Shown: one piece after another, positions 45,400-60,440 of the stretch | How the letters are laid out: each line of letters begins with the position of its first letter | Position numbering within the stretch: the first letter of the stretch is position 1 | Virus record (IMG/VR): IMGVR_UViG_3300042465_005116 | Span: 64,001-128,000 of that record | From: a virus | Taxonomy: Duplodnaviria; Caudoviricetes | Length of the DNA: 64,000 nucleotides | Reading direction: 5' to 3' (one strand) | The notes under the pieces: model-generated | What the model was told of the DNA's origin: nothing | Databases searched by the model: none | The model's input: only the letters and a program-made list of their open reading frames with translations | Program-made: the position numbers and the translations under genes

Positions 45400-45798
45400 T
45401 TATCTATTGTATAATTTATTTATTATATGAGTTGAACTAAAGCCTTCCATCTTAGGGAAATATACGATTTCACCTACATATTCACTCCCTACAATTCGTT
45501 TACCCCTATATTCTTCTCCAATAACCATAATGGCCGGTCTCATTGTTTTAATGTGGGTTTCCAATTGTTCATCCGAATCAAATATTACAACTCTATCAAC
45601 ATATTTGATAGCTTCTAATAAGGTGATTCTACTTACAATATTATTTATAGGTCGTTGTTCTCCTTTTAATTCGGTAACCCTCTTGTCACCATCAACTCCA
45701 ACAATTAGGAAATCCCCTAACTCTGCTGCCCTCTTTAATAATTGAATGTGTCCTAAATGAACAATATCAAATGTACCATTTACCCAAACTTTTATCAT
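45400..45798 (-). CDS. Cytidylyl/adenylyltransferase (RfaE-II/TagD-like)
   Basis: NGTFDIVHLGH (HxGH), LIVGVDGD..V..LKG..RP, GFSST. Confidence 0.88.
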   Translation of the reverse strand: MIKVWVNGTFDIVHLGHIQLLKRAAELGDFLIVGVDGDKRVTELKGEQRPINNIVSRITLLEAIKYVDRVVIFDSDEQLETHIKTMRPAIMVIGEEYRGKRIVGSEYVGEIVYFPKMEGFSSTHIINKLYNR

Positions 45799-46169
45799 AA
45801 CAAATCATTTGGCGTTTTTCTATAAATTCTGTATGAATCCGAATCAAAATGTTCAGTACTTACCTCATATACAACTCCCCTTTCTTGTAAAGAAGTAAGT
45901 TGGTGTGGTGTACCTTTTTCAATATAAACTGAATCGCCTTCGTTTAAGATTTCTTTTTTTATTATACCGATTTTAGTATCAATCCATTTGAACTCAAATT
46001 GTCCATCTTGAATATACCACGATTCGTTTTTAAGCATATGGTAATGCATTGAAAACTTATCACCCTTTTCTGCGAAAACTAAAAGTTTACCACAATATTG
46101 TGCATCGTTATGAACCCATAGTTCATATCCCCACGACTTTTGTACTTTTGTTGGTCTTGTTATTATCAT
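45795..46169 (-). CDS. Cupin (mannose-6-phosphate isomerase C-terminal-like); start probably MIITRP
   Basis: KSWGYE, FSMHYHMLKNESWY, PHQL, YEVST. Confidence 0.75.
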   Translation of the reverse strand: MIITRPTKVQKSWGYELWVHNDAQYCGKLLVFAEKGDKFSMHYHMLKNESWYIQDGQFEFKWIDTKIGIIKKEILNEGDSVYIEKGTPHQLTSLQERGVVYEVSTEHFDSDSYRIYRKTPNDLL

Positions 46170-46489
46170 ACTGCGAAAGATTCTCCACACCCACATGTAC
46201 GGGATGCATTTGGGTTTATAAATTCAAATCCCTTACCATTCAATCCATCTGAGAAATTTAATTCTGTTCCGTAAAGATATAATAATGATTTGTTGTCTAC
46301 TAAAATTTTTACTCCTTTATCTTCTGCAAGATTATCTCCTGCACGTTGGTCGGTATCAAATGAAAGGTCGTATGACAATCCACTACATCCACCACCTTTA
46401 ATTGAAACTCTAACAAACGGAGTTTTAAATCCACTTTCTTCAATGAGTGAACTTAATTTTTTAGCTGCGGTTTCTGATACTGTTACCAT
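46166..46489 (-). CDS. iscA: Fe-S cluster A-type carrier IscA/HesB
   Basis: GGGCSGLSY, NPNASRTCGCGESF. Confidence 0.95.
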   Translation of the reverse strand: MVTVSETAAKKLSSLIEESGFKTPFVRVSIKGGGCSGLSYDLSFDTDQRAGDNLAEDKGVKILVDNKSLLYLYGTELNFSDGLNGKGFEFINPNASRTCGCGESFAV

Positions 46490-47948: not shown

Positions 47949-48605
47949 TTAAATAAGTTTTGATTTAGTAATCAATTCTGAATAAGGTTTCCAATTATCT
48001 CCTTTTCTAATTATTGAATAGGGTTTCCAATTCACTCCCATTTGAATATATTGTAACTCTGCATTACATCTATTTGTAATATCAACATTACTTATGTCTA
48101 TTGTTTTAGCGTATTGTCCAGTCATCCACCAAAAATTACCAGAGTACATTATATTTGTAGGGTTACTTGCTACTTCTAATAAAAAACCATATGTGTTAAA
48201 AACTTCATTATCCAAAATTCCAAATACGTTATCAATATATTGAATATTATGTAATTGCATTACATTTCTCCATCGGATAGATTCAGAATCGGTTTGTTTA
48301 GATGCCCCCTTTGTGTGTAGATAAAAAATATAATCATTATTATTAAATGATGATTTATCTCTTTCTATTAAATTTAAAGTTACAAACTCATTATTCATTA
48401 ATTTAGTATCACCAATTATAATTTTTGAATCATACTCATACATTAATTTGATTATATCGTCTACTGAATTATTATTTTCTGATATTGAGATGCCAATAGT
48501 TAATGAGTATGGTTGATTAATATATTTTTTTATTAATGCAAGTTGTTCATGTATTATAGATTCAACCCCCTCTATTGCATAGATGTGATAATATATCCGT
48601 ATCAT
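47949..48605 (-). CDS. Glycosyltransferase-like hypothetical protein
   Basis: IYYHI, FYLHTKG, YSGNFWW pattern seen in GT-A-like phage proteins. Confidence 0.45.
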   Translation of the reverse strand: MIRIYYHIYAIEGVESIIHEQLALIKKYINQPYSLTIGISISENNNSVDDIIKLMYEYDSKIIIGDTKLMNNEFVTLNLIERDKSSFNNNDYIFYLHTKGASKQTDSESIRWRNVMQLHNIQYIDNVFGILDNEVFNTYGFLLEVASNPTNIMYSGNFWWMTGQYAKTIDISNVDITNRCNAELQYIQMGVNWKPYSIIRKGDNWKPYSELITKSKLI

Positions 48606-49648
48606 ATTAAATTCGTATGGGTAGTATCAATAAATTCGTATAGGTTATGAAATAGATTTGTATTTCTACCTATCTTATTAAATTCTTTTTTAAATAATTC
48701 ATGTTCTGGGTGATTAGAATCCCAAACTTGTTTTAATTTAAATTCCGCTTCAGAAAATGTTCCCCAATTAGTTATTTTACCAAAAAAAACATTTACCTTT
48801 TTGCCAAAAATAGAATACATTATATTATAAAAGGTTTCCATTTCCATATAGTTACTATCTTGAACAACAAACGAAGTCTTTACCGATTTTAATGTTTTTA
48901 TTGTAGAAATAAAATTTAAATTATTTATTAAAGTATCCCATTTACCACCTAATCTGGTTTTATTTTCATAGGTGTCACGTGTTCCGGCATCTATTGATAT
49001 CTCACAAGATGTTACATACTTATGCACATTTGGCATACTATCCCACATTTCTTTTGTCCACATTGATGCGTTTGTGTGGAAATGTATTCTTGTTAATTTT
49101 GGATATTTTTTTGGATTAAAATTTCTTAAATAATTTCTAAAACTAACCGAAACAAATGGGTCGCCTGTCCCCGTGATGTACAAAGTTTTAACGTTTGCTG
49201 AATAGTAGGTATCAATTTCATCTATTGTTTTTTCTATTCGTTCTATTCCTTTACTGCTTTCAACAATTAAATCTACTCTGCACGATGGACATTTATAATT
49301 ACAAGTCCTATCAAAATTCATTATAACATTAGTCGGTGTATTTGGTTCAACGATTGGAGTTGTATACTTTGAATTTGATTTTAAAGTAATTGGACCAGAT
49401 ACTACACTATCTGATAATAATTTACTTAAATATGGACATAATTCTTTGTTACAATATTTAAATGAACCATCTAATATAGAATTTCTAATATCAATGATTG
49501 GTTCACTATTATATACATCTTTTAAAGGATACTCACTAAGTTCTATTTTATTTGGCAACCAGGATGGACAACAAACAAACCCAACATTATTATGTATTTC
49601 TAAAGTAGTAAATGGAGTACTACAGGTGTATTGTTTTAAATCTATCAT
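48602..49648 (-). CDS. Radical SAM enzyme with N-terminal SPASM/twitch-like Cys cluster
   Basis: CNYKCPSC (CxxxCxxC), TGTGDPF, HTN, ISIDAG; extra Cys motifs CSTPF, VCC, CNKELCP. Confidence 0.88.
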   Translation of the reverse strand: MIDLKQYTCSTPFTTLEIHNNVGFVCCPSWLPNKIELSEYPLKDVYNSEPIIDIRNSILDGSFKYCNKELCPYLSKLLSDSVVSGPITLKSNSKYTTPIVEPNTPTNVIMNFDRTCNYKCPSCRVDLIVESSKGIERIEKTIDEIDTYYSANVKTLYITGTGDPFVSVSFRNYLRNFNPKKYPKLTRIHFHTNASMWTKEMWDSMPNVHKYVTSCEISIDAGTRDTYENKTRLGGKWDTLINNLNFISTIKTLKSVKTSFVVQDSNYMEMETFYNIMYSIFGKKVNVFFGKITNWGTFSEAEFKLKQVWDSNHPEHELFKKEFNKIGRNTNLFHNLYEFIDTTHTNLI

Positions 49649-50139
49649 AATAATTTTTCGATATTACTTCTACTTCCCTTGCGTAATCTATCTGAATGGG
49701 TTCTATCATATATATCTTCGTAATAAGTAATTGGTATATTAAGTTTAAATGCCAATTCGTTCAAATCATTATTCCATTTTAAAATATCATTATAACATAA
49801 TTCAAATATATCAGACGGAACTTCTTCGTAGTAATATGGATTATTTGAATTATAGTTTTTTGTTTTTGAAAAATAAGTTTGGTATGCATGAGATTCTGCA
49901 CATTCTAATATATTTTTTCTAGATAATAATATTACTCTATCGAACTCCTTACTTAATTGAAAATTGTTTGGATGATGACATATTATTGTTTTGAGGATTA
50001 CATTCTTTTCACCATTATATTGAACTCTACCACTTCCATCAAATGGTTCAAATAACGGAGTTAATCCATTTTCTTTTGCTAATTTATGTAACAAAGAAGT
50101 CGAACCGGTTCTGGGTAATGCAATTATTAATATACTCAT
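49645..50139 (-). CDS. Short sulfotransferase-like (P-loop) protein
   Basis: IIALPRTGSTSL, LFEPF, ILLSRKN..AES, YYEDI. Confidence 0.65.
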   Translation of the reverse strand: MSILIIALPRTGSTSLLHKLAKENGLTPLFEPFDGSGRVQYNGEKNVILKTIICHHPNNFQLSKEFDRVILLSRKNILECAESHAYQTYFSKTKNYNSNNPYYYEEVPSDIFELCYNDILKWNNDLNELAFKLNIPITYYEDIYDRTHSDRLRKGSRSNIEKLL

Positions 50140-50654
50140 ATGATATTAAATTTTGCTTTCTTTTTAGAAAACCATATTATCAATACATCTCGTTCCCCAC
50201 TAATTATCTTTTTTACCTCGTGGGATTCACTACCGCCGTTAAACACAACATAATCTCCTTCATTTTTTAATGATACGTTTTTATCATTTATATACATTTC
50301 ACCACCTGTAAAATCAGATGATAATAGGATACTAATCGTCTTATGTGTTGTAAATCTATCTTTATGTTTTTTAGCATAACCATTTTCACCATATATCAAT
50401 CTATGCATTATATATAAGTTATCAATTGGTTCTTCAAATTTATTACAAATAAATTCATTTAAATTTTTATTTTCTAAAGTATATACCCAACTATTATTTG
50501 GAAAAAGAGAAACACCTTCATCTTTTTTAAGATGGGTTGCAAAATACAATTGAGGGTGGGATGCTTTTATGTATGCTAAGTCTTCCTCATTCATTATTCT
50601 AGTAGTACTTAATTCTGATTTTAAAAAAAGTAAATCTTCTGTTGATAATTTCAT
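50136..50654 (-). CDS. 2OG-Fe(II) oxygenase
   Basis: HKD, FTGGE, HEVKKIISGERDVLIIW. Confidence 0.82.
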   Translation of the reverse strand: MKLSTEDLLFLKSELSTTRIMNEEDLAYIKASHPQLYFATHLKKDEGVSLFPNNSWVYTLENKNLNEFICNKFEEPIDNLYIMHRLIYGENGYAKKHKDRFTTHKTISILLSSDFTGGEMYINDKNVSLKNEGDYVVFNGGSESHEVKKIISGERDVLIIWFSKKKAKFNII

Positions 50655-51283
50655 ATAAGTTTATTTTTTTTATTTTCAAATTCTACAACCAATTCGTCTA
50701 TATTTAAAAATTGGTGGAGTTTAAGATAAAAATCATAACAACCTTTTGAACCGGGATGCCAATCTATCGGGTCACCACCTTCATCTGCTATAGAAGTTAC
50801 TTTTATTAATTCTACAAACTCCTTTGTCTTTTCATAAAAATCATCGTTCCATGTTACAAAGATTGGTTCATATTTTTTATAAAAATATTTTAATTTTTTA
50901 ATAAATAATATTTCAGAATCCCTATCCCCATTATGCCAATGTTCAGTTTCTTTGACCCTTAGTTCTAATAGTTTTTTAGCAAACGATTTATCACTATACC
51001 ATTCCCAATTTAAATATTTTAAGTTGTGATTTGTATCTCTTTCCCCAAAATATCTTCGTGGGAATCTGCCGGGTGCGGTAAATACTATAACTAATCTATC
51101 GCCTTCTACATAATTTGGTATATTTCCAGTTTGATATAATATAGAATTATTGTCAGACCCAAATTTTCCCAATTTAATAACATTATAATGATTAGATAAA
51201 TAATCTGTCCAATGTATTTCTGGTAAATCCCAATCTACAAAACTATCACCACAAATGTATATGTTATTTTTTTTATTTGACAC
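50651..51283 (-). CDS. SGNH/GDSL-like protein
   Basis: CGDSF, GSDN, C-terminal DWHPG. Confidence 0.6.
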   Translation of the reverse strand: MSNKKNNIYICGDSFVDWDLPEIHWTDYLSNHYNVIKLGKFGSDNNSILYQTGNIPNYVEGDRLVIVFTAPGRFPRRYFGERDTNHNLKYLNWEWYSDKSFAKKLLELRVKETEHWHNGDRDSEILFIKKLKYFYKKYEPIFVTWNDDFYEKTKEFVELIKVTSIADEGGDPIDWHPGSKGCYDFYLKLHQFLNIDELVVEFENKKNKLI

Positions 51284-51813
51284 TATATAATAGTTTTATT
51301 TGTTGGGCTATTTCCTTTTCTTAATCGGCCGGGCCCATTTAAATCAAATATATCTTCGTAATATGTTATAGGTATATTAATACTTTTAGAAATAAATTCT
51401 AAATCAGTATGATACGAAAGAACTTGTTCATATCTCCATTGGTCATGTGGAGTAGTCTTCCAAAGATAATTTTCATAAAACATAAATTTTTTCATATCAT
51501 GATAATAATTTAAATAAGCCCAACTTTCTCCACACGCTTTTAAATCTTTTCTTGATAATAAAATAACTTCATCAAATTCTTTTGTTAAATTTATTAACCA
51601 CTCAATCCTATCTTCTTGTTTAATTTCATCCAAACTTTGAAAAACAAGTGTTTTAACTACAATATTATTTTCGTTAGAATTATATCTTTCAATACCAATG
51701 CTTAGTGGATTAAATGGTTCAAATAAATATTTTTTTATATTGTATTTTTTTCTCATCGTTTCCCCTAAACTCGTAGAACCTGTTCTCGGTAATGCAATTA
51801 TTAAAATTTTCAT
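51283..51813 (-). CDS. Short sulfotransferase-like protein, paralogue of 49645..50139
   Basis: IIALPRTGSTSL, LFEPFN, ILLSRKD, ITYYEDI, RLRKG. Confidence 0.65.
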   Translation of the reverse strand: MKILIIALPRTGSTSLGETMRKKYNIKKYLFEPFNPLSIGIERYNSNENNIVVKTLVFQSLDEIKQEDRIEWLINLTKEFDEVILLSRKDLKACGESWAYLNYYHDMKKFMFYENYLWKTTPHDQWRYEQVLSYHTDLEFISKSINIPITYYEDIFDLNGPGRLRKGNSPTNKTII

Positions 51814-52376
51814 AACAATGTTTTATTAGATTTTAATTTAGGATAATCAAAATCAGTTTCCGTCATCCAAATATTTAATGCGTAACGCGTACCACTTACA
51901 ACTGGTAGTACTCCATGATAAGTAGTCGAACCATTAAATGATATGGAATCTCCTAATTTCAAATCGGATAGTGTTAATCCATTTAATGTTTCAAAATGAT
52001 AAGGAGGATTCACATCTTCGGTTAAAGCAAATTGACCCCCTTCAAAATTATCAGAAAGAACAATTACTGTGGTTAATTCACTTGATTTATCCTTATGTAG
52101 ATTAAGATATCTACCATCATAATATGAAGTTAGACTGATATTAAAATTCTTTAAATTAAATGATAGGTAATCAAACCATAATTTAAAGTTTCCGTTTTTA
52201 TAATTATCGGTTAATAAATTAATTATTCTTTTTTTAAATTCTTCATCATACATTCTTCTACAATCCCAATGTTCGGTTGGACTATATGAAAAGGGTTCAC
52301 CAAATTTAAGACAAAAATCAATTATATCATTGGCAGTTTCTCTATTACAAAAATTATTATTTATGGTATAATTCAT
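51810..52376 (-). CDS. 2OG-Fe(II) oxygenase
   Basis: LHKD, FEGGQF, HGVLPVVSGTRYALNIW. Confidence 0.85.
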   Translation of the reverse strand: MNYTINNNFCNRETANDIIDFCLKFGEPFSYSPTEHWDCRRMYDEEFKKRIINLLTDNYKNGNFKLWFDYLSFNLKNFNISLTSYYDGRYLNLHKDKSSELTTVIVLSDNFEGGQFALTEDVNPPYHFETLNGLTLSDLKLGDSISFNGSTTYHGVLPVVSGTRYALNIWMTETDFDYPKLKSNKTLL

Positions 52377-53194
52377 AATAGATGCGAATTTTTTGGTTTA
52401 GTATGTGTTAATAAATTACCTTCACTTATAAATTTATATAATTCATCGGCAATTAATTTATATCCATTATTACTTGGATGTTTACCTGCGGTAGTACTTA
52501 TCCAATTATTACCATCCTCCCATACATCTTTTCTATTGGTATCAATTAATAAATTTGCCATTGTTTTAGTTTGATAACCCCAATATTTATCACTCTCGAT
52601 TAAATTGGTTTTATCAACTAACTTATGAATATTTTTATTAATCATTATATCAAACGCGTCACAAAAAAGATATCTGATTCCTAATTCTTTAAATATAAAT
52701 TGAAGATGTAAAATATAGTTTTGATTCACTATATCATAGTAAGTATCATTGAATAAATTACCTATGTAATAATCTCTAAAATTTTTTTCCGCCCTATTAT
52801 AGTTTATATTATCACTATTAACTCCATCAAAAATATACTTTAAAAGGTGTTCTTTACTTTTATATCGTTTGCCCCATATAAAAAAATCATCTTTGGTTGG
52901 GAAAAAAGGTAACGGGTCTCTTAGAGAAGATGACCACATAATAACAACAAAATCATCTTGAGTGATGATTTCATTTTTTAACTGATAAGATACTGCGTTA
53001 AATATTGCATTATTTGAGAATGCACCAACTCCATTATTTTTAACTTCACATTTTAATAGTTCTGATAAGTGTTTCGGCCAACAATATTTTTGTCTTATTA
53101 TTGTCCTTTGTTCTGGATTATCAGTAGTATATTCATCTTCAATATTTCCACCAACCCCCTCAGTCCAACTATCCCCAAAGGTAAACAATTTCAT
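52373..53194 (-). CDS. SGNH/GDSL-like protein
   Basis: FGDSWTEG, NNGVGAFSN, C-terminal KHPSNNGY. Confidence 0.65.
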   Translation of the reverse strand: MKLFTFGDSWTEGVGGNIEDEYTTDNPEQRTIIRQKYCWPKHLSELLKCEVKNNGVGAFSNNAIFNAVSYQLKNEIITQDDFVVIMWSSSLRDPLPFFPTKDDFFIWGKRYKSKEHLLKYIFDGVNSDNINYNRAEKNFRDYYIGNLFNDTYYDIVNQNYILHLQFIFKELGIRYLFCDAFDIMINKNIHKLVDKTNLIESDKYWGYQTKTMANLLIDTNRKDVWEDGNNWISTTAGKHPSNNGYKLIADELYKFISEGNLLTHTKPKNSHLL

Positions 53195-53205
53195 AATGCA
53201 TAATA

Positions 53206-53349
53206 TTAAAGATGTGTTTCTTTAATTTTAGCTACAACTGCTTGAAATGCAGATGCTATTTTTGTTTTAACATCGGTTGATAAAGAACCAATAACCGGTT
53301 TAATAACGGTAAGTGGTCTTTCTTCTTTAATTTTTGGTGTCTTTGCCAT
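53206..53349 (-). CDS. 47-aa basic amphipathic peptide (absent from ORF track)
   Basis: MAKTPKIKEERPLTVIKPVIGSLSTDVKTKIASAFQAVVAKIKETHL fills the gap after the ATP-grasp-Hint gene. Confidence 0.65.
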   Translation of the reverse strand: MAKTPKIKEERPLTVIKPVIGSLSTDVKTKIASAFQAVVAKIKETHL

Positions 53350-53379
53350 AATATTTTTTTATTTTAATTTTTATTTTAA

Positions 53380-54867
53380 TTAAAGTTTAGGTGGGAGCCC
53401 TTGATTACAAACCGGACACCAGCTACTACAAGGACCAGACCCGCAATAATAACTACCACATCCCCAACAACCATTATGCATCACACTAAATACTCCATCT
53501 CCTATATCCGCTAAAAATAAATCACCTGGTTCAAAGTCTAATGAATATATTGTTTTATATTCAAACACCATTTCTAATCCAGTAATTTCAATGGTTGTTA
53601 ATTCATTTGTATTTATATCGGTTACAACTAATTTATCGCCAATATATAAACTATTTACTTTTTCAAATCTAGTTGCGGTTGAATCTTTTTCTTCAATATA
53701 ATACACACATGATGGAGTATCACTCCAAGTTTTACCATCTGCAAGTGTTATCTGTATCATTACCGTTTCAACTGATGCAGATACCATTGCCGTTAATTCG
53801 GATTGTAATGATGTTAAGGTATCGTTTGATTGCTGTAGTGTACTATCCCATCCATATGTCACTATTTCATTTGTAAAAGCTTTAGCTTCATTTTCATTTG
53901 AATCTATAAAATTTATAGAACGAACATGGTCACCTAATTGTATAGTACTAACATTTGTTAATGAACCATCATAGTTTAGGATATTTGAATCATCATCGGT
54001 ATGGTAATCGTTCTCAGTTTTACCTATTTCCTTTGTAATATATTTATATCTTGTTTTTTGATTTAATTTTTTGGTGCCAGTAACAAATTCATCAGCGGTA
54101 AACGAAACTGGTATTATTGAAGATTGAGTGTATCCACCCATATTAATAATATCTAAATTTGAACCATATATAATATCAATTCCTCTTATAATTGAGTATC
54201 TACCGTCTACCAAATTATCCTCTGAAAATATGAATTCTTGTATTAAATAATTACTTTCCGTTAAATTTATGGTATCAACTAATTCAGTATTATTTGAAAC
54301 TGTATATAATGCAGGATATTGTGTTTTATCGTACTGAGGATAACGATATTTTATTAATATGTTTGGATTTGTGGTAGTAGTATAATCTACTTCATCTAAT
54401 GTATTTAAATTTAATGTATCAGATGTATAATTCGTTTTTGGAATATACCCCGAATCTTTCATTAAATTAAAAAATTCAAATTTATCAGCACAATACGTTT
54501 CATCCACTAATGCGGTTGTATCAAACGCCTGTCTTAAAATAAATTTAGTATCAGTATCTTCTATAAATGGTACAGTAACCGAACCTTGCGGTACAGCATG
54601 GTCAATATATGTTATATTATTTTCTACACATTTTTCTTGTAATATTTTTTTAAATCTATTTGGTTGATTTAAGGGTTTGTGTGAATCGCCTTCTGTCCAT
54701 ATATAATGGAACTCAGTAATATTATTACTACTTAACATATTGAATAACGTAGTATAATCTAATAAATCTGCACCATCATTATAAATTGTGGTATTTGTGT
54801 TTATTTCTAAAAACTTAACCGAATTATTTTTTTGTAGATAATCACTACCAATTATTGTTGCTTTCAT
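53380..54867 (-). CDS. Circularly permuted ATP-grasp-like ligase fused to a Hint-like domain and a 30-aa six-Cys C-terminal peptide
   Basis: N-terminal GSDY..VKFLEINTN, YIPKT, ILIKY, YLIQEFI (ATP-grasp elements); ILNYDGS...IQLGDHVRS...IYSLDFEPGDLFLA...VMHN (Hint blocks); tail GCWGCGSYYCGSGPCSSWCPVCNQGLPPKL. Confidence 0.68.
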   Translation of the reverse strand: MKATIIGSDYLQKNNSVKFLEINTNTTIYNDGADLLDYTTLFNMLSSNNITEFHYIWTEGDSHKPLNQPNRFKKILQEKCVENNITYIDHAVPQGSVTVPFIEDTDTKFILRQAFDTTALVDETYCADKFEFFNLMKDSGYIPKTNYTSDTLNLNTLDEVDYTTTTNPNILIKYRYPQYDKTQYPALYTVSNNTELVDTINLTESNYLIQEFIFSEDNLVDGRYSIIRGIDIIYGSNLDIINMGGYTQSSIIPVSFTADEFVTGTKKLNQKTRYKYITKEIGKTENDYHTDDDSNILNYDGSLTNVSTIQLGDHVRSINFIDSNENEAKAFTNEIVTYGWDSTLQQSNDTLTSLQSELTAMVSASVETVMIQITLADGKTWSDTPSCVYYIEEKDSTATRFEKVNSLYIGDKLVVTDINTNELTTIEITGLEMVFEYKTIYSLDFEPGDLFLADIGDGVFSVMHNGCWGCGSYYCGSGPCSSWCPVCNQGLPPKL

Positions 54868-54931
54868 AAATATTTTATTTATTTCTTCTGAATGTATCTA
54901 TAAATATATTAAAATTGAATTTAAGACCATT

Positions 54932-55234
54932 TTAAATGATGGTGGGATTTTTTTTAATTTCTAGAGGTTCTAAATAGTTAGAATCAACTTCATTCCATTT
55001 TTTTAATCCACATGCATTATAAGTTGTTGAAAATACTTTTTTATTCAATGGACACCCACATTCACCACAATATGCACTCCATTTTATTCCCTTTATTACT
55101 TCCTTTCTATAATCACATCCTAAACAAACATCAAGTCTTAATTTAGCTAATTCCTCTTGTTGAATATTTGGGTTGTATGAAATTTTCCAAGCTTCAAATA
55201 TTTCTTTATAATTAATCTTAGGTATAAGGGGCAT
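54932..55234 (-). CDS. Small Cys-rich putative metal-binding protein
   Basis: CLGC, CGECGC, CGLKKW. Confidence 0.65.
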   Translation of the reverse strand: MPLIPKINYKEIFEAWKISYNPNIQQEELAKLRLDVCLGCDYRKEVIKGIKWSAYCGECGCPLNKKVFSTTYNACGLKKWNEVDSNYLEPLEIKKNPTII

Positions 55235-55235
55235 A

Positions 55236-55973
55236 TTATATTAATGTTTTATTATTTTTTTGAATATCGTAATAATCATAAATATCGTTATATTTTTTTA
55301 TAAACTCATCATTTAATTTTAATTCACATTCAAAGTGTTGACTTCCGTTTGATTTTTCCATTTTAAATGGTTTACCGGTTTTATTAGATACCCATTCCTC
55401 TAATTCTCCAAAATTTCCAAATTCAAACCATTTTATTCTTTTGTTATTATTATGCCAATATGATACCGGCCGGAATAAAATTAATAAAATATTTTCCATA
55501 TAATCATCAACATACTTTTCTATTCCATTTCTTTTTGTAAATTCTTTAATTACTAACATTTGAGAAGTTGGTGAGATTAAATCTAAATCTTTAAAAAATA
55601 ATATATCATCTATATTTAATTTTTTAAGTACATTTACTAATTCGGTTGGATATTTTATACGTTCCATTTCGACCAAATCAATTATATGTTTCCACAATGA
55701 AATGAATCGTTCATATCTATTTCTTTTAATTGTTATAATGTCATATTCATTTCCAAATTTGGTAATCAAACCATTTAATGATTCATGACTATGTACCATA
55801 TAATCGGCCAACTCCTCATTACTCATAGATAAATCTATTCTACTCTTCCATTTATTAATGAATTTTTGGTCAAGATATTTTATATCAAATTCACTTCTTA
55901 AACATGATATATAAAAAGAAGTTGATGCACATCTTGGTAATGAAATAAATAAAAATTTATTCTCTACTAACAC
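55236..55973 (-). CDS. Sulfotransferase family protein
   Basis: FISLPRCASTS, KRNRYERFISLW. Confidence 0.7.
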   Translation of the reverse strand: MLVENKFLFISLPRCASTSFYISCLRSEFDIKYLDQKFINKWKSRIDLSMSNEELADYMVHSHESLNGLITKFGNEYDIITIKRNRYERFISLWKHIIDLVEMERIKYPTELVNVLKKLNIDDILFFKDLDLISPTSQMLVIKEFTKRNGIEKYVDDYMENILLILFRPVSYWHNNNKRIKWFEFGNFGELEEWVSNKTGKPFKMEKSNGSQHFECELKLNDEFIKKYNDIYDYYDIQKNNKTLI

Positions 55974-56611
55974 TATATTAACGATTTTTGGTTTTTAATA
56001 AAATCAAATCCAACATTACCTGCCATAACAATTCTATCTAACGTTGAATTTGATGCAGCATTTGGAGAATGTGGAACATCTGCCTTCATTATAATTAAAT
56101 CATCTTCTTCTGGTCTTATCCAATATTCCTTATCTTCTTTTGATTTAAAATATAAAACACCGTCATCACCATTCATTATATCTGGCATTTGAATGTAATA
56201 AACGTATGTATAGTGTGGAATAAAGTCTTTATTTTTTTTATTAATTTCGGTATGTATATGATATTTTTCATCAGTATAAAAATTTTCTTGTACAGGATTT
56301 TTAGAACGAACTACATTTACCCAAGCATCTGTATTAATCTTATTATAATTTATACCGATTTCATTATAAATTTCTTTACATTTATTAATACCAATTTGAA
56401 CAATTTCATCCAATTTTGTTTCTACCTTAATATCACCAATAAAATTTAAATGTTCATTCCATTCTTTTTTATAACCAAACCCATCAGTTTTAACATTAGG
56501 CTGGGATTCTATAATAGAATATGCCTCTTTTAAAAACAATTGTTTATCACTTATTCGATTTAATTTTACTTTCCAAATATAAGTTGTCTCATCAAAAAAT
56601 ATCTTTTCCAT
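55973..56611 (-). CDS. 2OG-Fe(II)-like double-stranded beta-helix protein
   Basis: AWVN, HIHTE, YTYVYYIQMP, HSP, RIVMAGN. Confidence 0.65.
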   Translation of the reverse strand: MEKIFFDETTYIWKVKLNRISDKQLFLKEAYSIIESQPNVKTDGFGYKKEWNEHLNFIGDIKVETKLDEIVQIGINKCKEIYNEIGINYNKINTDAWVNVVRSKNPVQENFYTDEKYHIHTEINKKNKDFIPHYTYVYYIQMPDIMNGDDGVLYFKSKEDKEYWIRPEEDDLIIMKADVPHSPNAASNSTLDRIVMAGNVGFDFIKNQKSLI

Positions 56612-56617
56612 ATTATA

Positions 56618-57253
56618 TTAATTTAGTTTTTTATAAAATATATCAGCTAATTCTTTATGACCTACTTCAGAAAAATGGGCATCGTTAATTACGCCATTAG
56701 TTTCATCTTGTAATCTATTTAATAAAGTTCCCACATACCAATCTGTTGGTAGTAATTGTTTTTTAAGATGAACATCAGTACATAAAGCAAAGGGTGACCA
56801 AAAAATAACTTTAATGCCTTTTAATTTAAATATAGTACTAAGTAATTTAGACCAATTAACTATTTCATCCCAATATAACCTACTCATCCTATTAATCCGA
56901 ATTTGCTCTAATGTATTTGTATCAATAAATTTATGTAATTCTAATTCAGATTGTACATGTCGAATAGTAACCCATTTGTTATTTTTTTCTAATCGAAATC
57001 GGGAAGGATGTGACCAACCTATTATAACAATATCACCACTATTTATCGTGTCCATTTTAGTAATAATAGTGTCAAATATAGTATTATTATCTGCACCTCC
57101 AACACCTAGTTGAATAACATCAGTATTTAACATGATTGCTAAATGGTCTGAAAATATTTTTGGGGTATAACCTTTCCATTCACTATATTGTTTACCCAAC
57201 CCACCTTGTTTTTCCCATGTTGTGGAAAATGAATCACCAAATACCCAAATCAT
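56618..57253 (-). CDS. SGNH/GDSL-like protein
   Basis: FGDSF, GVGGADN, IIGWSHPSR, DAHFSEVGH. Confidence 0.65.
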   Translation of the reverse strand: MIWVFGDSFSTTWEKQGGLGKQYSEWKGYTPKIFSDHLAIMLNTDVIQLGVGGADNNTIFDTIITKMDTINSGDIVIIGWSHPSRFRLEKNNKWVTIRHVQSELELHKFIDTNTLEQIRINRMSRLYWDEIVNWSKLLSTIFKLKGIKVIFWSPFALCTDVHLKKQLLPTDWYVGTLLNRLQDETNGVINDAHFSEVGHKELADIFYKKLN

Positions 57254-57813
57254 AAAAGATTTTGTTTTGTTGAATTAGTTTTAACTAATGATATCCAATT
57301 TACTAATGAATATCTAATGCCGGCTCTGATGGGAGTTACCCTATGTGTTAATCTCGAATTAAAAATATATAATGTTCCAATTTTATTTTCTATTGGTACT
57401 AACTCACCTTTAAGGTTTTTAATTTCTAATACACCACCTTCATATGAATTATTTAATTGAATTACTATCGATGTAAATCTATCTCTATATATAGTATCGG
57501 TACTATCGACATGCCAATCAAAATATTCACCTTCTTTATATTCAGTAAATTGAAAATCTCCCAAACCAGTAACTTCCATTCCATTTATATTGAAAGTTTC
57601 TCTTAATTTATTTGTTAATCTTTCATTTAAAAATCCTAAATCAGATATCCAAGCAACCGATGATTTTCTAGTTTTTTTAGTAGGTATGGTATTAGAATCA
57701 CCGGTATATACTTCTGCATCTGATAATGTTAATTCTTTTTTGCAATTATTTAAAATGAAATCACACTCTTCGGGTGATAGAAAGTTTTCAAATATGTCTA
57801 TATTGTCAATCAT
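57250..57813 (-). CDS. 2OG-Fe(II) oxygenase (PKHD-type)
   Basis: QFTEY..GEYFDWHVD, YEGGVL, HRVTPIRAGIRYSLVNW. Confidence 0.88.
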   Translation of the reverse strand: MIDNIDIFENFLSPEECDFILNNCKKELTLSDAEVYTGDSNTIPTKKTRKSSVAWISDLGFLNERLTNKLRETFNINGMEVTGLGDFQFTEYKEGEYFDWHVDSTDTIYRDRFTSIVIQLNNSYEGGVLEIKNLKGELVPIENKIGTLYIFNSRLTHRVTPIRAGIRYSLVNWISLVKTNSTKQNLL

Positions 57814-57884: not shown

Positions 57885-58265
57885 TTATCCGATTTTGATT
57901 TGAACTTTCTTTGGTTTTGCTTCGTCTTTTTTATCGGTTGTAATGATTAATAAACCATTATCAAATTTAGCATCTGATTTAGTTCCATCATAATCTTTAC
58001 CCAATGCAAAAGTTAAATCAATATCCGAAACCAATGAAGAACTACCTTCTTCTTTTTTTGATTTAATTAGAATTTGAGTTTCAGTAACTTCTAATTTAAT
58101 GTTCTTTGGATTGTGACCTAATACATTTAGAGTTAATTGATACTTACCATCTTCTAATACCTTACCCTCATATCTACTGAAAGTAGAATAGGTTGATGTT
58201 GATTTCCAAGTCGGTAATTCGGATTCAAATAAATCCAATAAGTTTGTAATGTTTGCTGTGTACAT
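57885..58265 (-). CDS. Small heat-shock protein Hsp20
   Basis: Alpha-crystallin pattern YQLTLNVLGH.PKNIKLEV...AKFDNGLLII. Confidence 0.85.
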   Translation of the reverse strand: MYTANITNLLDLFESELPTWKSTSTYSTFSRYEGKVLEDGKYQLTLNVLGHNPKNIKLEVTETQILIKSKKEEGSSSLVSDIDLTFALGKDYDGTKSDAKFDNGLLIITTDKKDEAKPKKVQIKIG

Positions 58266-59392: not shown

Positions 59393-59958
59393 TCTAAAAC
59401 TATATTGATTTGTTTAGTAATTTTTGCTTCAATCATTGTACATTTTAAACGTAGGGTATCCCCTCTCATTTTATTAACCGGTGCAATCATTGTGTTTATC
59501 TCACCATTCGTTCCACTATATGATGCTGGATTGCAAGTAGGTATTAGTACATCTCTCCAATTCGTAAGTGGTGGTAAGTTTACATAAGTAAGTTGACCGG
59601 TAAATTCATTGATGTAGGTTTTAGTAATCTTTGCTACAACATCATCTTTCCATAACCACCAATATAAATTACTTTCCCATTCAACTTTAATTGGTTCTTT
59701 GGTATTTTTGAGAGTACCAGTAACCCTATGTGTTGTTTGGTTTGTATTTGGATTTAATTGTAAATGATAATACCCATTCGCATCTTGTGGTAATCGACCA
59801 TCTAATGTAAAATCATTCGGATTATAAGTAACCTTTGTGGGTGTGGTATTTGTTTTTGTTTGAACATCCGGTCCCCATTTTGAAATAGGAGTGGGTATAT
59901 CATCTTTACTGCAAGCAGTAAATAATAAAGAACTTAATACTAACCATTTGATTCTCAT
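59389..59958 (-). CDS. Lipoprotein (start MRIKW)
   Basis: MRIKWLVLSSLLFTA|CSKDD lipobox followed by a K-D-D signal. Confidence 0.75.
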   Translation of the reverse strand: MRIKWLVLSSLLFTACSKDDIPTPISKWGPDVQTKTNTTPTKVTYNPNDFTLDGRLPQDANGYYHLQLNPNTNQTTHRVTGTLKNTKEPIKVEWESNLYWWLWKDDVVAKITKTYINEFTGQLTYVNLPPLTNWRDVLIPTCNPASYSGTNGEINTMIAPVNKMRGDTLRLKCTMIEAKITKQINIVLE

Positions 59959-60440
59959 AACAATTTGTTTAAGATTGATTCCCAAGTCGGATATTCATTC
60001 CATTCTTTTGTTTCATATGCCCAACCAAATTTAAGTAACTCACCTTTGAACTCTCCTGCCCCATTCTTAATTCGGTCATCAATTAGATAATCACCTGCCA
60101 AAAGGTCTTTTCGGTGAGTAACAACCATTTTTTTGTGAAAGAGATTTCCAAAGTGATTCTCAATCCAATATCGTTTGTCAGTTGAAGCATCAGGGTTTCC
60201 CCACGGTGCTGCAGTTGCGATAAACATTTCATACTTACCACTTTCGGCCAACTTCTTAACAGCCTCAATAGCTCCTTCATATGGAGGTGGGTTTCGGAAT
60301 ATACCGGGAATATGGTCAGGACATTTTTTGTATTTATCAACTAAGTGTGGGTGGAGTTCAAACCACTTGTCAAACTCGGCTTTTAAATCTACTAAAACGC
60401 CATCCATGTCAATGTAAAGTATCTTTTTATTTTCAGTCAT
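59955..60440 (-). CDS. 5'(3')-deoxyribonucleotidase (NT5C, HAD)
   Basis: YIDMDGVLVD, PPYEGAIEAV, ATAAPW, LIDDR. Confidence 0.88.
   Translation of the reverse strand: MTENKKILYIDMDGVLVDLKAEFDKWFELHPHLVDKYKKCPDHIPGIFRNPPPYEGAIEAVKKLAESGKYEMFIATAAPWGNPDASTDKRYWIENHFGNLFHKKMVVTHRKDLLAGDYLIDDRIKNGAGEFKGELLKFGWAYETKEWNEYPTWESILNKLL

Follow-up and report, generated by a model that had tools for sequence, protein, structure and literature searches.

Genomic setting and gene content of the island

The window considered here, i.e., the whole stretch of 64,000 nucleotides that was analysed (positions 64,001 to 128,000 of the IMG/VR virus record IMGVR_UViG_3300042465_005116; Duplodnaviria, Caudoviricetes), contains at positions 47949-57813 an island of 15 open reading frames (ORFs), most of whose products finish with the same short tail, two leucine or isoleucine residues at the free C-terminus ([LI][LI]-COOH). 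The tail is carried, in this phage and in its relatives, by proteins of unrelated folds encoded around one gene, whose product joins an ATP-grasp domain, a Hint domain and a Cys-rich peptide (hereafter, the central protein). Proteins ending in the tail are referred to as tagged.

All genes of the window are on the minus strand, and they include those for baseplate, SbcC-like, thymidylate synthase and helicase proteins and for a Nol-type carbamoyltransferase, as is typical for large marine and freshwater myophages. The GC content is 25-29% in the island vs. ~30% elsewhere. Since the IMG/VR contigs related to this DNA reach 335 kb, and at least three of them are complete according to CheckV and one has terminal repeats, the source is an uncultured giant phage of an aquatic (lake), low-GC lineage.

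The comparative set consisted of 117 related loci with uniform ORF calling, whose 2,324 proteins were clustered into families. Each stop codon was classed by the position of the next start, and the stratification by geometry was carried out over 1,587 non-redundant ORFs. Two complete relatives, G003 (288,673 bp) and G001 (335,630 bp), were used for whole-genome tests. The motif scored was [LI][LI]-COOH, and a relaxed score accepted any C-terminal hydrophobic pair. The island genes are listed below with, for tagged products, the last six residues and the positions of their codons.

57250..57813, minus strand: 2-oxoglutarate (2OG)-Fe(II) oxygenase of the P4H type (PF13640, E 4.5e-14); tagged, TKQNLL-COOH (57253-57270); ATGA overlap with the next gene
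56618..57253, minus strand: SGNH-like hydrolase of family 8; untagged copy, ends KKLN
55973..56611, minus strand: 2OG-oxygenase-like protein of family 6 (PF13640, E 1.8e-4); tagged, NQKSLI-COOH (55976-55993); TAGTG 1-nt overlap
55236..55973, minus strand: P-loop sulfotransferase-like protein of family 1, GTG start; tagged, NNKTLI-COOH (55239-55256); 1-nt gap (TAA T ATG)
54932..55234, minus strand: Cys-rich small protein of 100 aa, family 4; tagged, KNPTII-COOH (54935-54952); 64-nt gap downstream
53380..54867, minus strand: central protein, with ATP-grasp (residues 1-282), Hint (285-467) and then a hypervariable Cys-rich peptide of ~30 aa; untagged, ends PPKL
53206..53349, minus strand: conserved 47-aa peptide of family 7 (alignment of 35 orthologues); untagged, ends ETHL
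52373..53194, minus strand: SGNH/GDSL-like hydrolase (DUF6071, E 2e-4; Lipase_GDSL, E 3e-3); tagged, KNSHLL-COOH (52376-52393); ATGA overlap
51810..52376, minus strand: 2OG-Fe(II) oxygenase (PF13640, E 1.8e-8); tagged, SNKTLL-COOH (51813-51830); ATGA overlap
51283..51813, minus strand: P-loop sulfotransferase-like protein of family 3; tagged, TNKTII-COOH (51286-51303); TAGTG overlap
50651..51283, minus strand: SGNH-like protein of family 84, GDSF motif, GTG start; tagged, KKNKLI-COOH (50654-50671); ATGA overlap
50136..50654, minus strand: 2OG-Fe(II) oxygenase (PF13640, E 1.6e-6); tagged, AKFNII-COOH (50139-50156); ATGA overlap
49645..50139, minus strand: second sulfotransferase-like paralogue of family 3; tagged, NIEKLL-COOH (49648-49665); ATGA overlap
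48602..49648, minus strand: radical SAM enzyme (PF04055, E 2.4e-6); tagged, THTNLI-COOH (48605-48622); ATGA overlap
47949..48605, minus strand: 218-aa protein of the unassigned family 35, last gene of the island; tagged, TKSKLI-COOH (47952-47969); 73-nt gap downstream

The two sulfotransferase-like families have no Pfam match; the best fold for the model of family 3 is the Stf0 sulfotransferase, a weak match (E 3e-3) found among P-loop kinases.

A short linear motif shared by unrelated enzymes

Translation confirmed all the 12 C-termini that the original prediction had listed among the 15 island ORFs, and the exceptions are also those it had named, namely the ATP-grasp fusion, the 47-aa peptide and the SGNH-like hydrolase at 56618-57253. 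The 12 tagged products end in [LI][LI], with K or N two or three residues before the pair, while only 4 of the ~53 other ORFs of the window do so (Fisher p = 9e-8). As to the gene junctions over which the tail had been said to persist, ATGA overlaps, a 1-nt gap and genes with a downstream gap (54932 and 47949) were all found, whereas the reported TAATG overlaps were not, both 1-nt overlaps (51283 and 55973) being TAGTG with GTG starts.

The position profile over the related loci gives the consensus K(-6) x x K/N(-3) T/S(-2) L(-1) I(0)-COOH, or alternatively K-x-x-[KN]-[TS]-[LI]-[LI]-COOH, with T/S at -2 in 58% and I/L at position 0 in 92% of the cases; most misses inside tagged families are conservative (VI, ML, LM, FI, FL). 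The tag is present in 72/72 family 1 orthologues near the central gene, in 97% of 63 family 3 orthologues, in 95% of 44 orthologues of the radical SAM enzyme (mostly as TNKTLI), in 5/6 members of family 35 and in 3/3 of family 84, and a hydrophobic pair is terminal in all 45 members of family 6 that lie near the central gene. Family 8, to which the untagged SGNH-like copy belongs, has [LI][LI] in 73% and a hydrophobic pair in 85% of its members. The closest database relatives of a tagged tryptophan halogenase from the related loci likewise end in a hydrophobic pair (120/120).

Several observations place the tail outside the enzyme folds. In family 1 it is preceded by an indel-rich linker, and in families 1, 3, 4 and 5 the hydrophobic pair stays terminal despite linker indels of up to ~15 residues. 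The AlphaFold2 (AF2) model of the family 3 enzyme has a mean predicted local distance difference test score (pLDDT) of 92.6, but its last block (residues 171-176, in a division into 10-residue blocks) averages 47, and residues 173-176 fall below 50, i.e., they are disordered. An untagged cyanophage 2OG homologue aligns to the oxygenase 57250..57813 only to residue 175, in the last strand, and the final 12 residues of the latter are therefore an appended extension. Judging from these comparisons, the common tail is a true short linear motif, added to the final fold element by way of a variable linker.

The carriers had been described as proteins of unrelated folds, and this holds well beyond the island: at least 24 families are tagged, including P4H-type 2OG oxygenases, an Asp/Asn beta-hydroxylase, the tryptophan halogenase, a SET-domain protein, radical SAM enzymes, the two P-loop sulfotransferase-like families, SGNH hydrolases and the small Cys-rich protein. 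Paralogy alone can be ruled out as the source of the tail, which 24 unrelated families carry as an add-on beyond their fold. The idea of a shared signal acting at the protein level on unrelated folds thus stands, while the functions originally listed for it (common docking, targeting or degradation) are too broad for support to be claimed.

Overlap geometry, base composition and codon usage

The original prediction had cautioned that AT-rich initiation regions combined with overlapping stop and start codons could bias gene ends toward such residues. This does not hold as the cause, as the enrichment survives controls for geometry, composition and codon usage. Among the 14 largest tagged families, the motif is kept in 93% of the genes with an ATGA overlap, 88% with a 1-nt overlap, 87% with a gap of 0-10 nt, 92% with a gap of 11-30 nt, 83% with a gap >30 nt and 83% with no start within 100 nt; orthologues that do not overlap a neighbour therefore retain the tail rather than losing it. 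For all other families the values across the same classes are 5-25%, with 25% in the ATGA class. The small Cys-rich protein of family 4, usually encoded directly upstream of the ATP-grasp gene, is a case in point, with gaps >30 nt in 34/58 orthologues and yet [LI][LI] in 78% and the relaxed pair in 95%. Conversely, some families have ATGA overlaps with their neighbours and are 0% tagged (families 13 and 32 never carry the motif); examples of such overlapping families are the APS kinase (21/26 ATGA) and a 908-aa protein (8/10 ATGA). Families with at least three members are distributed into 24 tagged, 55 untagged and 7 mixed, and the stricter pattern [KRNQ]-x-[LIVM][LIVM]-COOH is found in 477/629 proteins of tagged vs. 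6/545 of other families.

The ATGA overlap forces the last codon to end in A, hence ATA, TTA or CTA. In genes without a nearby downstream start the tail codons match the background usage (Ile ATT 58% and ATA 39%; Leu TTA, TTG, CTT and CTA), and for Ser at -2 both AGT and TCN codons occur. The check on synonymous codons proposed with the original prediction thus came out in favour of the motif, and selection acts on the protein, given this lack of any codon preference peculiar to the tail.

The comparison set beforehand as a test, i.e., the [LI][LI] rate of the island against the genome-wide rate by overlap type, gave the same outcome in both complete relatives and in the 117 loci. In G003 the motif ends 8/12 island proteins vs. 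14/393 elsewhere (p = 8e-9; composition predicts 2.5%), and outside the island it is found in 3/19 ATGA-overlapping genes and in 1/32 genes with 1-nt overlaps; in G001 the counts are 10/16 in the island vs. 25/402 elsewhere (p = 3e-8). A mild overlap bias is real, but far too small to account for the island.

The central ATP-grasp-Hint-peptide protein

The central protein was modelled with an AF2 pLDDT of 85. Residues 1-282 adopt an ATP-grasp fold, matching YgiC (Z 10.1 over 199 aligned residues), GspS (9.2), eukaryotic glutathione synthetases (8-9) and the TTLL/RimK/LysX group (5.5-6.6, with LysX at 6.1); on the evidence of the model, its nearest folds are ligases acting on the C-terminal carboxylate of peptides or proteins. 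The residues E21 and N23 of the E-x-N metal (Mg-binding) motif are invariant, as are other polar residues, and this conservation suggests an active ATP-grasp enzyme. Residues 285-467 form a Hint domain (Z 16.4 with an intein-like domain from bacteria; E 9e-9 with a hedgehog autoprocessing domain in Foldseek) that ends in the invariant pair His464-Asn465, and that is predicted from its fold to cleave itself, releasing the peptide that follows. This last part is a hypervariable tail of ~30 residues with at least six Cys; in clade 1 these core peptides, too, end in K-hydrophobic.

A search with the N-domain among 1.8 billion representatives returned ~260 clusters, in which the domain is always N-terminal and, in full-length members, nearly always followed by Hint. 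Among PDB sequences, a central-protein profile matched only an intein, and weakly. Searches with the island DNA and with the central protein in 50,697 cultured phage records, and a conserved-stretch pattern scan of GTDB genomes with the central-protein profile, gave no match, and no published account of the tag or of an ATP-grasp-Hint-peptide protein was found in the literature.

The gene for the 47-aa peptide (41-47 aa, ERP..VIK..IK.KHL) comes immediately after the ATP-grasp-Hint gene both in the window and in L152, L155, L156, L157 and L159; it is present in clade 1 and in distant lineages and absent in clade 2 (G001).

Variants of the central protein were observed in some loci. At L059:10001-11695 the Cys-rich core lies between Hint (..MHN|GCWC..) and a Peptidase-S74-like chaperone domain (..GGFK|SDISFKEN..GIIAQELIG..), and such an arrangement, with putatively self-cleaving domains on both sides, would free a peptide of ~26 aa with exact ends. 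At L155:3394-5274 (P0123, 626 aa) the core peptide is followed by a second canonical intein, with a CFIAGTEI start and an ILVHN|KK end; this Hint-peptide-intein layout resembles the engineered split-intein circular ligation of peptides and proteins (SICLOPPS), by analogy with which a C-terminal thioester and head-to-tail cyclisation could be possible. Three Hints in tandem occur in P0222.

Link between the tail and the central gene

The central gene was found in 55/55 loci of at least 15 kb, including those fetched through the radical SAM gene. At positions -5 to -1 and +2 to +5 around it, 64-94% of the genes are tagged; the fraction drops to 29% at +1, which usually holds the untagged 47-aa peptide gene, and is mostly 0-18% at more than 11 genes on either side. 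Near the central gene, and allowing the relaxed pair, families are either 85-100% or 0% tagged; the latter, in the same operons, comprise the APS kinase, the adjacent 126-aa protein, DUF2061, the carbamoyltransferase, the 47-aa peptide and the central protein itself. By family assignment, the split separates tagged enzymes, whose expected substrate is a peptide or protein, from untagged suppliers of cofactors.

The tail profile is identical in two clades whose central proteins are only ~28% identical, and in a lineage with a central protein (N-domain 32% identical) that lacks the Cys-rich peptide, 13 neighbours are still tagged. In one locus (L105), whose central protein is among the most divergent, 6 of the 10 proteins of tagged families, belonging to six different families, end in VV, VL, LF, LM or FI, vs. 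6% overall. A joint shift of this kind would be expected if the tails had one shared reader; the changes in the L105 central protein (G7A, F132L, E211R, Y234C, D411S and F451Y) showed no interpretable pattern.

Proposed docking on the central protein and alternative explanations

The family specificity of the tail and its centring on one gene suggest that it is most likely a docking label on enzymes encoded within ~5 genes of the ATP-grasp-Hint gene. Each enzyme would offer a free, flexible C-terminus to one common receptor, for which the constant ATP-grasp-Hint part of the precursor (465 residues) is the best candidate. Docking would keep single-domain enzymes that lack a separate recognition domain beside the hypervariable core peptide, their putative substrate, and new enzymes could be plugged in by gaining ~6 residues. 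This is the most economical reading: with small single-domain enzymes and a core peptide whose variability precludes direct recognition, nothing is constant except the tails of the enzymes and the 465 residues of the precursor. The class to which its fold belongs favours the ATP-grasp domain as the possible socket. We infer both that the tail is bound and by which reader, and we regard the constant part of the ATP-grasp-Hint protein as the docking site with even confidence for and against. Concerning the scaffold, compartment or virion on which the enzymes had been proposed to assemble, the comparison across loci is in favour of docking to the ATP-grasp-Hint protein, and none of the observations indicates a compartment or a virion. 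A complex prediction of the central protein (residues 1-468) with ATP, Mg and the 30 C-terminal residues of the enzyme from family 3, a fragment that included folded elements, scored 0.00, to be read as "no answer", and weighs neither way.

Several findings speak against docking on the central protein. A stand-alone ATP-grasp homologue (L159:1036-1911; 291 aa, no Hint, no core peptide), found on two contigs from different samples, itself ends in ..SSKLI; its gene is followed by the small peptide gene, and its SGNH neighbour is untagged. The arrangement fits an ATP-grasp that bears the tag rather than being the socket, unless it docks on itself, and thereby argues for Hint as the possible socket, for self-docking or for a reader encoded elsewhere. 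In distant marine lineages just one to three neighbours are tagged. A UDP-glucose dehydrogenase and an NT5C nucleotidase, which act on small molecules, end in the motif outside the island, although with a background of 3-5% these may be chance occurrences; some other off-island carriers are again of tailoring type (B12-binding radical SAM, GDSL/DUF6071 proteins). Finally, the role of the Cys-rich peptide as the true substrate of the enzymes is putative.

If the tail is indeed a docking plug, it would represent a pathway organisation not described before, in which a six-residue C-terminal label would recruit any small enzyme to the tailoring set of a hypervariable, self-releasing peptide, and the free change of enzymes between the islands of different phages would be accounted for. 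The tail could also serve as a bioinformatic marker, as it already flags radical SAM and SGNH genes scattered outside the island, and possibly as a ready-made tag for enzyme recruitment in engineered peptide pathways. Tail peptide vs. central protein moreover offers a handle on the so far unexplained arrays of 2OG oxygenases and other enzymes of aquatic phages.

Among the alternatives, the tail could be an address label read elsewhere, by a phage scaffold or chaperone such as HSP20, by a host PDZ-like or TPR-like binder of C-termini, or by a compartment. With T/S at -2 in 58% of the cases, it is compatible with the pattern of class I PDZ ligands ([ST]-x-hydrophobic-COOH), the tagged stand-alone ATP-grasp would be readily accommodated, and the shift in L105 is equally compatible with a change of host. 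A search for PDZ_2 (PF13180), the sole PDZ family searched, gave no match in the genome records of four relatives, three of them CheckV-complete, host proteins being outside the search. The HSP20 gene (window 57885-58265) is the direct neighbour of the island in this window and in loci of clade 1, and its own product ends in an I-x-I type motif (IKIG); in clade 2, however, HSP20 lies away from the island, and it is common in untagged cyanophages. We rejected HSP20 as the reader, since its groove binds I-x-I motifs and not adjacent hydrophobics and it has no link to the island in clade 2. As an outside reader would also leave the tight centring of tagged genes on the ATP-grasp-Hint gene unexplained, we consider it unlikely.

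A degradation signal would make the enzymes short-lived, or have them remodelled by a host AAA+ unfoldase, in the way of MuA. ClpX recognises the MuA C-terminus RRKKAI (PMC8138137), which tails such as KRKNLI and KRKNII resemble, and in the model the tail shows up as an exposed, disordered end. The likeness, basic residues followed by a hydrophobic free C-terminus, is however loose, and degradation would predict neither the split between tagged peptide-acting and untagged cofactor-supplying proteins in the same operon nor the link with the central gene, leaving the tagged set unexplained; to destabilise ~10 enzymes in a short infection would also be costly. On these grounds a degron appears improbable.

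We likewise give little credence to the possibility that the tail is a covalent substrate, whose terminal Ile/Leu carboxylate the ATP-grasp would bind in its acyl site, activate and join to an amine, be it that of a capping amino acid, of Lys(-3) or of the N-terminus of the peptide that Hint releases. The ligase character of all the nearest folds and the invariance of E21-x-N23 and other polar residues are in line with it, and, if true, it would imply an ATP-driven ligation of protein C-termini organising the whole enzyme set. The ATP-grasp might, however, equally act on the core peptide, the clade 1 cores having K-hydrophobic ends as well, and the tagged stand-alone ATP-grasp is awkward for this hypothesis.

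That the motif merely reflects AT-rich initiation regions and overlapping stop and start codons, or a conserved DNA junction that cassette shuffling left behind, is extremely improbable, because the A fixed in the last codon by ATGA and the mild enrichment of ATGA genes (3/19 off-island in G003, 25% in the other families) are set against the retention at gaps >30 nt, the overlapping families without the motif, the background codon usage with both Ser boxes, on which the junction origin was rejected, and a tail that is unchanged across clades with different neighbours. Signals for the type IX or other secretion systems, CaaX-type lipidation and prohead-protease sites were discarded for their wrong length or pattern, and the enzymes need cytoplasmic cofactors.

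Comparison with known C-terminal motifs and docking systems

The logic of the tail is known from C-terminal address and docking motifs, while its sequence matches none of the systems compared. The closest to it in concept may be sought among very short motifs at the free C-terminus of unrelated enzymes, such as the tripeptide [LIM]-[DES]-[WF]-COOH that the targeting complex for cytosolic iron-sulfur assembly (CIA) reads on eukaryotic cytosolic Fe-S proteins (PMC10245660). There, one complex serves all the carriers; the CIA motif is, however, acidic-aromatic, pertains to eukaryotic cofactor delivery and has a known reader, whereas the phage carriers are tailoring enzymes, many of them not metalloproteins, with only a candidate for the reader. 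The peroxisomal targeting signal 1 (PTS1; SKL-type, read by Pex5) and the cargo-loading peptides of encapsulins are also C-terminal address peptides common to unrelated cargo enzymes. The tail profile matches neither PTS1 ([SAC]-[KRH]-[LM]-COOH) nor the CIA tripeptide and, unlike PTS1 and encapsulin cargo, the tagged genes centre on a ligase-Hint gene with no compartment or shell evident (an encapsulin shell gene was not searched for).

As in the biosynthesis of peptides that are synthesised by ribosomes and modified post-translationally (RiPPs), where leader peptides and RiPP recognition elements (RREs) act, several tailoring enzymes would be brought to a variable core peptide via a constant element. 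The polarity is however reversed, with the short peptide on the enzymes and a folded constant element (the 465-aa ATP-grasp-Hint part) on the precursor, and the phage enzymes are small single domains (RREs were not looked for). The docking tails of non-ribosomal peptide synthetases (NRPS) and polyketide synthases (PKS), the clamp-binding motifs and the tail motif of the single-stranded DNA-binding protein (SSB) similarly gather different enzymes on one hub by short terminal peptides, although without sequence similarity to the phage tail and with synthetase modules, sliding clamps and SSB partners as hubs. The LysW/LysX pair offers a further parallel, a small Cys-rich protein with a conserved C-terminal tail encoded beside an ATP-grasp that acts on C-terminal carboxylates; the LysW tail is, however, acidic (EDWGE) and present on the carrier only, while that of the phage is basic-hydrophobic and present on more than 20 enzyme families.

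Other observations on neighbouring genes

Two further genes of the window also encode proteins ending in LL, which may be tag bearers or chance occurrences. A cupin (window 45795-46196, NDLL), two genes beyond the island, has LL in all orthologues seen, and so does the NT5C nucleotidase (window 59955-60440, NKLL), which is always in ATGA overlap. Of the four radical SAM/SPASM paralogues arranged in tandem at L012:257-5527, only every second one is tagged, which hints at tagged/untagged pairs.

Genes for the APS kinase, the 126-aa protein and the DUF2061 protein were found just upstream of tagged genes (L012:5566-6586; L062:579-1605), an arrangement that fits a supply of 3'-phosphoadenosine 5'-phosphosulfate (PAPS) to the sulfotransferase-like enzymes. 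The APS kinase tails are of the form L-x-[LI] (KLSL, KLKI), distinct from the tag.

Just downstream of the island, several relatives encode large proteins with a shared N-terminal ..ISGSL.. motif (L012:13829-20429; G001 294170-296197), which are presumably tail-fibre-like. The cyanophage 2OG arrays, in which no tag was found among those examined, likewise adjoin tail-fibre genes.

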